From a virus (taxonomy: Duplodnaviria; Heunggongvirae; Uroviricota; Caudoviricetes): 35,105 nucleotides of DNA. Shown piece by piece: positions 33,849 through 35,105 of the stretch. The stretch is taken from the IMG/VR virus record IMGVR_UViG_2711768044_000007, positions 1-35,105 of that record; one strand, written 5' to 3'. A program made the translations under genes and the position numbers. The notes under the pieces are model-generated. The model searched no databases and was not told where the DNA came from. It saw nothing but the letters and a program-made list of their open reading frames with translations. Within the stretch, counting starts at the first letter, position 1, and each line of letters starts with the position of its first letter.

Positions 33849-35105
33849 ATGTCAGACTCCCAGTGGAAAATGCTCTCCGCCATGCCCGGAGAGTTTTCAG
33901 TCAAGGTTGCCGGTGGCACGGTGGCATTTATTGAAAGTCCTTTCCGGCCTTCGGGTAATAAAGGCGGGATCACCTTCGCAGACTGCGTGATCCGCTTCAG
34001 CACGAAAGAGCCATTATGGATAATGCCGGTATCCGGTAATCCCAGTGCAGAAATCACCAGTTCAGGCGTGACCGGCATCATTCCGATTACAGCTGACGTG
34101 GCCGGAACACTCACGCCCTCCGACTGGAATGCACCGGATAACGCCGGGCCTTCCGGCAGCACGAATGGCAGCACCACAGAGCCGGAGTATTACTATGTGA
34201 TCCCACTGGCGGGACAATCAAATGGCATGGCCTATGGTGAAGGGCTTCCGTTACCGGATTCATTTGACCGCCCGGACCCACGGATTAAGCAACTGGCACG
34301 CCGCAGCACGGTCACGCCCGACGGTTCGCCGTGTAAATACAATGACATCATTCCGGCAGACCACTGCCTGCATGATGTTCAGGATATGAGCGGGATAAAC
34401 CACCCGAAAGCTGATCTGGCAAAAGGCCAGTACGGGACTGTCGGTCAGGGGCTGCATATTGCCAAAAAACTGCTGCCTTATATCCCGCAGAATGCCGGGA
34501 TACTTCTGGTGTCCTGTTGCCGTGGTGGTTCGGCATTTACCACCGGAGCCGACGGCTCATTCAGTGAGGCCAGCGGTGCTTCCGCTGATTCTTCACGCTG
34601 GGGAGCCGGTAAACCCCTGTATCAGGACCTGGTAAGCCGTACCAGAGCGGCGCTGGCGAAGAACCCGAAAAACAAACTTCTGGCAGTGGTCTGGATGCAG
34701 GGAGAAGCAGACCTAGCATCGGGAAGTCAGCAGCATAATGGTTTATTCACGACCATGGTTCAGCAGTTCAGAACTGACCTGTCTCCGCTTGCTGCGCAGT
34801 GTGTGAGTGGAAATGCTGGCACGGTGCCGTGGATTTGTGGTGATACCACGTATTACTGGAAAAACGCTGGCACCGATAAATATGAGGCGGTATACGGTGG
34901 CTACAAAGGCAAGGAAACTCAGAATATTTTCTTTGTACCGTTCCTGACGGATGAGAATGGACAGAACACGCCAACGAATGCTCCGGCGGAAGACCCGGAT
35001 ATTGTGGCTGTCGGGTATTACGGTGCGGCATCCCGTACCCAGGGCAGTTTTGTCTCGACACAGCGTGACAGCCATTTCAGCTCATGGGCACGCAGGGGCA
35101 GCCTT
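33849..35105 (+). CDS. SGNH/SASA-type esterase-like protein (sialate O-acetylesterase-like), 3' partial at window edge
   Basis: ORF open from ATG 33849 to window end (>=419 aa); contains VIPLAGQSNGMAYGEG, the GQSN motif of sialate-O-acetylesterase-family esterases; lies distal to tail fibre genes. Confidence 0.5.
   Translation, partial: MSDSQWKMLSAMPGEFSVKVAGGTVAFIESPFRPSGNKGGITFADCVIRFSTKEPLWIMPVSGNPSAEITSSGVTGIIPITADVAGTLTPSDWNAPDNAGPSGSTNGSTTEPEYYYVIPLAGQSNGMAYGEGLPLPDSFDRPDPRIKQLARRSTVTPDGSPCKYNDIIPADHCLHDVQDMSGINHPKADLAKGQYGTVGQGLHIAKKLLPYIPQNAGILLVSCCRGGSAFTTGADGSFSEASGASADSSRWGAGKPLYQDLVSRTRAALAKNPKNKLLAVVWMQGEADLASGSQQHNGLFTTMVQQFRTDLSPLAAQCVSGNAGTVPWICGDTTYYWKNAGTDKYEAVYGGYKGKETQNIFFVPFLTDENGQNTPTNAPAEDPDIVAVGYYGAASRTQGSFVSTQRDSHFSSWARRGSL

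Follow-up and report, generated by a model that had tools for sequence, protein, structure and literature searches.

A probable NanS-p-type sialate O-acetylesterase gene with an N-terminal domain of its own at the right end of a Mu-like prophage

Introduction

In its canonical form, the prophage-encoded sialate O-acetylesterase NanS-p consists of a DUF1737 domain, a SASA domain and a C-terminal domain, and its gene is located between the Q antiterminator gene (or stx) and the holin/lysis genes (PMC10462455). Activity of lambdoid NanS-p enzymes on 9-O-acetyl-N-acetylneuraminate (Neu5,9Ac2) has been demonstrated, and recombinant NanS-p de-O-acetylates Neu5,9Ac2 as well as mucin glycans and supports growth on Neu5,9Ac2 (reviewed in PMC8065619). 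For phage phi24B, a 2026 preprint describes NanS-p as a processed virion protein whose DUF1737 forms hexamers on the capsid hexons (doi 10.64898/2026.04.10.717836). The chromosomal NanS (YjhS) of Escherichia coli, whose structure is available as PDB entry 3PT5, is a single-domain enzyme of about 326 residues within the nan regulon. A survey of SGNH hydrolases assigns to 3PT5 the blocks GQSNA (residues 17-21), RGGSAF (120-125), MQGEFD (178-183) and R-x-SHFS (ending at residue 303) as well as a Ser-His pair in which a main-chain carbonyl oxygen stands in for the catalytic acid (PMC10792757). Here, we analyse a gene of this enzyme family which is present in 35,105 nucleotides of viral DNA (IMG/VR record IMGVR_UViG_2711768044_000007, positions 1 to 35,105), this whole stretch being referred to as the window. 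The gene, starting at position 33849, very probably specifies a three-module enzyme, a prophage-borne sialate O-acetylesterase of the NanS-p type, whose first 419 residues fall within the window. It lies at the right end of a Mu-like transposable prophage, of which it probably forms accessory cargo.

Enzyme family and role are already known, databases naming such proteins sialate O-acetylesterases, and the catalytic identification is in itself ordinary. The new part consists of the Mu-like location and the N-terminal module, neither of which is mentioned in the literature that could be searched. An earlier interpretation made from the letters of the DNA alone (hereafter the sequence-only reading) had regarded the location at the tail end of a Mu-like prophage as less usual, and no mention of such an esterase in a Mu-like prophage was indeed found in the searchable literature.

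Results

On the + strand of the window, ATG 33849 opens a frame of 419 codons (33849..35105) which leaves the window at its end and which we assign to the 5' part of a nanS-p-type sialate O-acetylesterase gene. An in-frame TAA is present 27 nt upstream of ATG 33849 with no other start codon in between, so that this ATG is unambiguous as the start of the esterase. Within the translated frame, the motif GQSNGM comprises residues 122-127 (34212-34229). It was this motif, seen in a partial open reading frame, which had led the sequence-only reading to propose an esterase of the SGNH/SASA type, and both the partial frame and the assignment have held. Pfam SASA (PF03629) is matched with E=1.8e-13 and 51.1 bits, the gathering score being 24.8, while phrog_143 is matched with 665 bits. 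Residues 108-418 align over about 310 residues with the 9-O-acetyl-N-acetylneuraminate esterase NanS/YjhS of E. coli (3PT5, E=2.4e-113). In view of the SASA, phrog_143 and 3PT5 matches GQSNGM is no chance motif. At the DNA level, the window can be aligned with the lambdoid nanS-p copy found in strain M3 from position 34181 (residue 111) onward, with 93.9% identity up to the window end, while nothing upstream of 34181 matches that copy. From the 3PT5 alignment and the lambdoid nanS-p homology we delimit a NanS-type SGNH/SASA catalytic domain at residues 111-419 (34179..35105, + strand). The window copy ends about ten residues before the homology to 3PT5 would end, and the complete catalytic module is predicted to be a NanS-type SGNH hydrolase reaching from residue 111 to about residue 430.

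All four NanS active-site blocks of 3PT5 are present inside the window, each on the + strand. Block I, GQSNG (residues 122-126; 34212..34226), aligns with GQSNA 17-21 of 3PT5 and contains the predicted nucleophile Ser124 (34218-34220). Block II, RGGSAF (residues 225-230; 34521..34538), which is the oxyanion-hole block, is identical to RGGSAF 120-125, and block III, MQGEAD (residues 283-288; 34695..34712), aligns with MQGEFD 178-183. Finally, block V, RDSHFS (residues 406-411; 35064..35081), aligns with the R-x-SHFS block and provides the predicted base His409 (35073-35075). The key catalytic residues, including block I, Arg406, His409, Phe410 and Ser411, are invariant in 12 homologues, while position 407, occupied by Asp in the window, is variable with D, P, N or A among homologues. 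The sequence-only reading had proposed to check for a catalytic Ser-His-Asp arrangement. This is the wrong test for NanS enzymes, which make use of a Ser-His pair and a main-chain carbonyl (PMC10792757); since in 3PT5 the main-chain oxygen replaces the acid, it is the Ser124/His409 pair and not a triad which is relevant here.

The part of the protein preceding the catalytic domain is of a different kind. Residues 1-80 (33849..34088, + strand) form a small all-beta domain in the AlphaFold2 model, with predicted local distance difference test (pLDDT) scores of 70-88 and no Pfam or NCBIfam match. It is followed by a linker rich in Gly, Ser, Pro and Thr (residues 81-110; 34089..34178, + strand), which is predicted to be disordered (pLDDT below 50 for residues 83-107) and is poorly conserved. 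Residues 1-110 retrieve no match from Pfam, even at E<=10, from NCBIfam or in a direct PHROG search, hence no DUF1737 (PF08410). Of SASA and DUF1737, for which the sequence-only reading had suggested a Pfam search, SASA is found while DUF1737 is not, and that reading had overlooked this difference in residues 1-110. The N-terminal domain sits where lambdoid NanS-p has DUF1737 and, as the DNA homology to the lambdoid copy begins at 34181, the N-terminus has been swapped cleanly at the boundary of linker and catalytic domain. It is a real, constrained domain under purifying selection: the ratio of non-synonymous to synonymous substitution rates (dN/dS) amounts to 0.095 within its lineage, and between lineages dN is 0.29 at saturated dS.

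A HMMER search with the N-terminus against 1.84 billion representative proteins returned its own family, one Salmonella relative (31% identity) and two spurious matches only. Word-index protein searches yielded fragments only, a scan of species-representative genomes found none, and a metagenome scan retrieved the two E. coli lineages described below and nothing else. From its homologues, the domain appears to be distantly related to phrog_4772, a family of phage proteins of about 79 residues whose function is not known. This family is matched by a 78-residue open frame of the related locus L062 (E=1.1e-18), by the Salmonella protein (7e-6), by that of locus L061 (2e-4) and by that of E. coli lineage C (3e-3). 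The window N-terminus itself has no direct phrog_4772 match and is linked to it only through these homologues at 31-60% identity. Members of phrog_4772 are small proteins, whereas in the window the homologous domain is fused to the esterase; a single-sequence IMG/VR scan for phrog_4772-like stand-alone genes retrieved the query itself only. In L062 (IMG/VR UViG_2744054454_000013, 1264-3627) the domain constitutes a separate gene of 78 codons, which overlaps a DUF4376 fibre-chaperone gene at the stop codon of the latter. The esterase gene comes 15 nt downstream and has a Shine-Dalgarno sequence of its own. This separate gene identifies the N-terminal domain as an autonomous unit.

The nearest complete relatives of the window gene reside in the mouse E. 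coli strains M1, M3 and M18, which share 97% DNA identity with the window over 32000-35100. Their full gene comprises 2,070 nt and encodes 689 residues (L001:7850-9919), the full-length relatives ranging from 680 to 691 residues, and the NCBI pipeline names the 689-residue protein "DUF6645 domain-containing protein". In the L001 relative, residues 108-428 match NanS (3PT5, E=3e-118) and residues 474-688 match the lectin-like domain at the C-terminus of the NanS-p encoded by the Stx phage phi24B (6YP6, E=2e-98); in Pfam, it contains SASA and DUF6645 (E=4e-67). Hence, past the position at which the window ends, the relatives bear a Pro/Ser/Thr linker and then the lectin-like jelly-roll domain DUF6645. 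Among the Mu-like esterases of loci L010-L060 the identity of this C-terminal domain to that of strain M3 varies from 39% to 97%, independently of the N-terminal lineage, which suggests a diversification of glycan-binding specificity. In L051 the N-terminus is kept at 97% identity while the catalytic domain is 73% and the C-terminal domain 39% identical. Judging from such comparisons, catalytic and C-terminal modules are mosaic among the Mu-like esterases. The last five bases of the window (35101-35105) align with no relative (…RRGSL compared to …RRGIISDR) and probably represent a contig end within a multi-copy gene.

The window as a whole represents a Mu-like transposable prophage, as it harbours genes for MuA, MuB, Mor, lysozyme, the Mu portal, Mu F and the gpT head protein as well as for sheath, tape measure, baseplate J and Gp48. 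The esterase gene lies distal to a Mu S-like tail fibre gene (32110..32991, + strand; phrog_1833, 466 bits), which is the last structural gene upstream, and to a tail-fibre assembly gene (33023..33595; Pfam Caudo_TAP, phrog_136), which is encoded on the − strand and so runs counter to the fibre gene. In all 58 of the 58 related loci examined, the N-terminus is confined to Mu-like prophages and found between the tail-fibre/invertase genes and com-mom. The E. coli-type order reads baseplate J, Gp48, S, assembly gene, (gin), esterase, DUF1378, DUF826, com, mom. Counted wherever the flanks extend far enough, it is observed in 33/33 IMG/VR and 17/17 metagenome loci and, in addition, in four annotated E. 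coli genomes, four lineage C assemblies and one O157:H7 genome. A Salmonella contig (L009) ends inside the esterase gene and shows the same order up to that point; DUF826 was not detected downstream in L012 and L017. The two small genes DUF1378 and DUF826 accompany the esterase both in lambdoid late regions, beside the holin gene, and at the Mu-like right end (L001:10084-10984), and in relatives a small open frame on the opposite strand is present between DUF826 and com. The prophages bearing this esterase are located at differing chromosomal sites, as expected of transposable phages.

Among 5,426 complete E. coli genomes, 28 contain the lineage of the window (lineage A) and 205 contain lineage C, whose N-terminus is 60% identical and which includes O157:H7, so that both lineages together account for about 4%. 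In 50,697 phage records the N-terminal domain occurs in only two, in both cases within regions annotated as "inserted Mu-like phage". In the phage records LC727881.1 and LC727895.1, Mu-like phages of this type are inserted within Stx1a and Stx2c prophages, which puts a Mu-borne esterase gene inside the record of a Stx phage. Besides E. coli, the domain is conserved in Salmonella and in a third host with identities of 31-38%, and in each case its carrier is a Mu-like prophage. One distant Mu-like prophage (L061, 5226-13837), whose tail genes are about 71% identical at the DNA level, encodes an esterase of 784 residues directly after the fibre and DUF4376 chaperone genes, without gin, DUF1378 and DUF826. 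Downstream of it follow a DUF1353 gene (a "tail assembly chaperone" in PHROG), com and a C5 cytosine methylase gene which replaces mom. Prophages of another host, P2-like or of other myovirus types, likewise encode NanS-type esterases after fibre genes, with still other N-termini.

Compared to lambdoid NanS-p, the window protein has the same catalytic SASA/NanS domain with up to 94-95% identity, and both are prophage cargo. Moreover, its full-length Mu-like relatives share the lectin-like DUF6645 (6YP6), and their genes are likewise followed by DUF1378 and DUF826. In contrast, the place of DUF1737 is taken by an all-beta domain of about 80 residues, which is unrelated to it, and a linker, the carrier is a Mu-like transposable myovirus prophage, and the gene is located between tail-fibre/gin and com-mom instead of between Q/stx and holin. 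The DUF1737-type copy of strain M3 (L043) is situated between the Q antiterminator gene and DUF1378, DUF826, holin and lysozyme. This locus and the published location (PMC10462455) contradict the statement of the sequence-only reading that nanS-p is known downstream of tail genes in lambdoid prophages. With the chromosomal NanS the window protein has in common the fold family and the blocks GQSN, RGGSAF, MQGExD and RxSHFS; unlike this single-domain enzyme, however, it is phage-borne and features extra N-terminal and, in relatives, C-terminal modules.

The gap separating the assembly gene from the esterase gene (33596-33848) comprises 253 bp with a GC fraction of 0.39-0.43 compared to about 0.55 in its flanks. 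While size and AT-richness agree with the roughly 250 bp noted earlier from the sequence, the region is not plain intergenic DNA. It contains a 3' remnant of the gin invertase gene (33691..33763, + strand), 24 codons including the stop, whose translation YRIGLSILCRYVSASPAPSRKVP with its stop codon corresponds to the C-terminus of gin in L002, IFDIGLSTLYRYFPASPAPSPKVP, likewise up to the stop. A terminator-like element on the + strand (33743..33770), consisting of a hairpin (33743-33764) with a stem of 7 bp and −10.4 kcal/mol followed by T6, overlaps the gin stop and lies 85 nt upstream of the esterase ATG. Comparison with L002 by blastn reveals a deletion junction at 33567..33695, where 129 bp stand in place of 975 bp of gin-positive relatives; the 975 bp comprise an alternative fibre-tip remnant and most of gin. 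The invertible tail-fibre (G-like) segment of the window (32110-33848) is frozen. Its right inverted repeat, the would-be partner of window 32622-32765, is no longer present. The assembly gene 33023-33595, antisense to the fibre gene, is the sole tail-fibre assembly gene, and in nine gin-less relatives it always has the orientation seen in the window, while in gin-positive loci both orientations occur.

An independent promoter, which the AT-rich region had been taken to suggest, is not indicated. On the + strand of 33600-33848 no sigma-70 consensus is present; by eye only a weak TTGAAT-N18-TATCAG can be made out, which we do not count, and this candidate was rejected. What remains in the gap is the scar of a deletion, together with the end of gin and a terminator-like element, and it gives no promoter evidence. 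The esterase gene may be transcribed by read-through, with gin or the late tail operon as the source, or else from an activator-dependent promoter. As the esterase gene is contiguous with the tail-fibre operon in distant relatives, late expression seems to be favoured. A search of 32000-35105 against Rfam gave no match, and no meaningful repeats were found around the esterase gene.

Discussion

For the gene of the window, the reading frame, the membership in the catalytic family, the active-site blocks, the boundary between the domains and the genomic setting are directly established. In contrast, its substrate, the time at which it is expressed and the task of its N-terminal domain are inferred. 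Between the two possibilities raised by the sequence-only reading, a NanS-p-like cargo enzyme and an enzymatic tailspike, the close match to 3PT5 and the presence of DUF6645 in the relatives favour the former. By homology, Ser124 of GQSN would act as the nucleophile and His409 of RDSHFS as the base, with the RGGSAF and MQGEAD blocks completing an active site which, as in E. coli NanS, should not require an acidic triad member. The expected reaction is the removal of the 9-O-acetyl group from Neu5,9Ac2 and from O-acetylated mucin sialoglycans, upon which the deacetylated sialoglycans would become usable by sialidases and the Nan pathway. Glycan targeting is the presumed task of the lectin-like DUF6645 domain in the relatives. 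No signal peptide is apparent in the protein on inspection, for which reason release by lysis is expected; the enzyme would reach its substrate upon phage-induced lysis or, should the N-terminal domain serve as an anchor, on the virion.

Several points weigh against this assignment. Asp407 in the RDSH sequence departs from the RSSH or RASH published for NanS and NanS-p (PMC10462455), although this is a variable position. The putative geometry of Ser124 and His409 is read from a gap-poor sequence alignment to the solved structure 3PT5 and not from the AlphaFold2 model of the 419-residue fragment, which is too poor for this purpose (mean pLDDT 52.6, with only 17 close sequences in the input). 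In addition, the gene has no sigma-70 consensus upstream on the + strand and is preceded by the terminator-like hairpin 85 nt before its ATG. Since the gene is incomplete in the window, its C-terminal domain and stop codon are those predicted from the relatives.

It is conceivable, though less likely than not, that the N-terminal beta domain docks the esterase on the Mu-like virion, at the capsid hexons or at a tail part. The enzyme would then act in the manner of a viral haemagglutinin-esterase, binding and destroying O-acetylated sialoglycans in mucus, which complements the cargo function rather than replacing it. Viral haemagglutinin-esterases such as influenza C HEF and coronavirus HE as well as the SGNH esterase tailspike gp63.1 of phage G7C combine a virus-borne SGNH-type O-acetylesterase with a lectin-like module. 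By description only, the Mu-like enzyme resembles them in uniting an SGNH-type O-acetylesterase with a putative carbohydrate-binding module, whereas its association with the virion is hypothetical. The decoration of the phi24B capsid by DUF1737 (doi 10.64898/2026.04.10.717836) provides a precedent. Display on the virion is also consistent with an N-terminus which is tied to the kind of phage and adjoins freely recombining catalytic and lectin modules (boundary at 34181; L051), with the other N-termini in P2-like and other myovirus prophages, with the conservation of the domain across E. coli, Salmonella and the third host (31-38%), always in Mu-like prophages, and with the position of the esterase gene directly after tail-fibre and chaperone genes in distant relatives. 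However, no paralogue of the N-terminal domain is present elsewhere in the window, its head and tail modules included, and the separate 78-residue protein of L062 would uncouple the enzyme from its anchor. Moreover, two E. coli lineages with 93-98% identity in their baseplate proteins diverge by 40% in the N-terminus. The support is associative, and the N-terminal domain has no structural match. Rather doubtful is the generalisation that esterases of the NanS-p type are built from modules and displayed on virions as "receptor-destroying" enzymes, with N-terminal anchors that can be exchanged to suit each type of virion, according to which DUF1737 may serve lambdoid/phi24B-type capsids, the phrog_4772-like domain Mu-like virions and others P2-like ones. 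If true, the Mu-like domain would be a new virion-docking module, and a transposable phage would bear an esterase and a lectin which aid binding to and passage through O-acetylated mucus.

Quite improbable, in our view, is a receptor-modifying tail enzyme which deacetylates a bacterial surface polysaccharide, for example O-antigen or an O-acetylated polysialic acid capsule, at adsorption. Phage G7C, with its SGNH tailspike gp63.1, and the Vi phages, with their acetylesterases, offer precedents for receptor-modifying tail esterases. The window gene is immediately distal to the tail fibre genes, in L061 and L063 the esterase gene lies between those of the DUF4376 fibre chaperone and DUF1353 ("tail assembly chaperone" in PHROGs), and among the tail proteins of PHROGs the open frame weakly matches phrog_25867 (E=2.4e-6) as well as phrog_4201 (E=0.005). 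For NanS-p, this possibility has been raised in a review (PMC8065619). However, the catalytic domain is close to NanS over its whole length (E=2.4e-113) and about 94% identical to lambdoid nanS-p at the DNA level, and both of these enzymes act on free and mucin-bound Neu5,9Ac2. The protein shows no fibre, beta-helix or trimerisation signature, and its N-terminus bears no similarity to that of the tail fibre (S). Furthermore, in the E. coli lineages gin and the terminator-like hairpin separate esterase and fibre genes, and the esterase-DUF1378-DUF826 block recurs beside lambdoid lysis genes, far from tail genes. A pseudogene, truncated or inactive and left where a degraded prophage ends, might be suspected from a gene that is incomplete in the window, with its last 5 nt unaligned to relatives, from the deletion of the adjacent gin and from the annotation of some relatives as frameshifted (L004). 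Yet 419 codons are open with every catalytic block intact, dN/dS towards close relatives is 0.1-0.14, near-identical full-length genes exist in M1, M3 and M18 with the same gin deletion, and the truncation falls at the window end. We thus consider decay highly improbable.

Taken as NanS-p-type cargo, the gene of the window stands for a second stable NanS-p architecture, which resides in transposable prophages of the Mu-like kind and is distinguished by an N-terminal domain of its own. Copy counts of nanS-p and typing schemes based on DUF1737 overlook this class of enzymes, although it is present in the approximately 4% of complete E. coli genomes given above, O157:H7 included. The exchange of the N-terminus precisely at the linker boundary, together with the reported capsid binding of DUF1737, raises the question of whether the same mucus-modifying enzyme is provided with different anchors for different phage morphologies.

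Additional loci

Two further loci encode NanS-type esterases in other settings. The P2-like prophage of L064 (5740-9074), recognisable by Tail_P2_I and Baseplate J, contains an invertase gene and then the gene of a NanS-type esterase of 786 residues, whose N-terminus, beginning with MKYIYSGPPTGMSITENG, is of a third, unrelated type. In the fibre cluster of the myovirus locus L063 a Macro-domain gene (7368-8177; Pfam Macro, E=1.4e-21) is inserted between the fibre and DUF4376 chaperone genes, just upstream of another NanS-type esterase gene.

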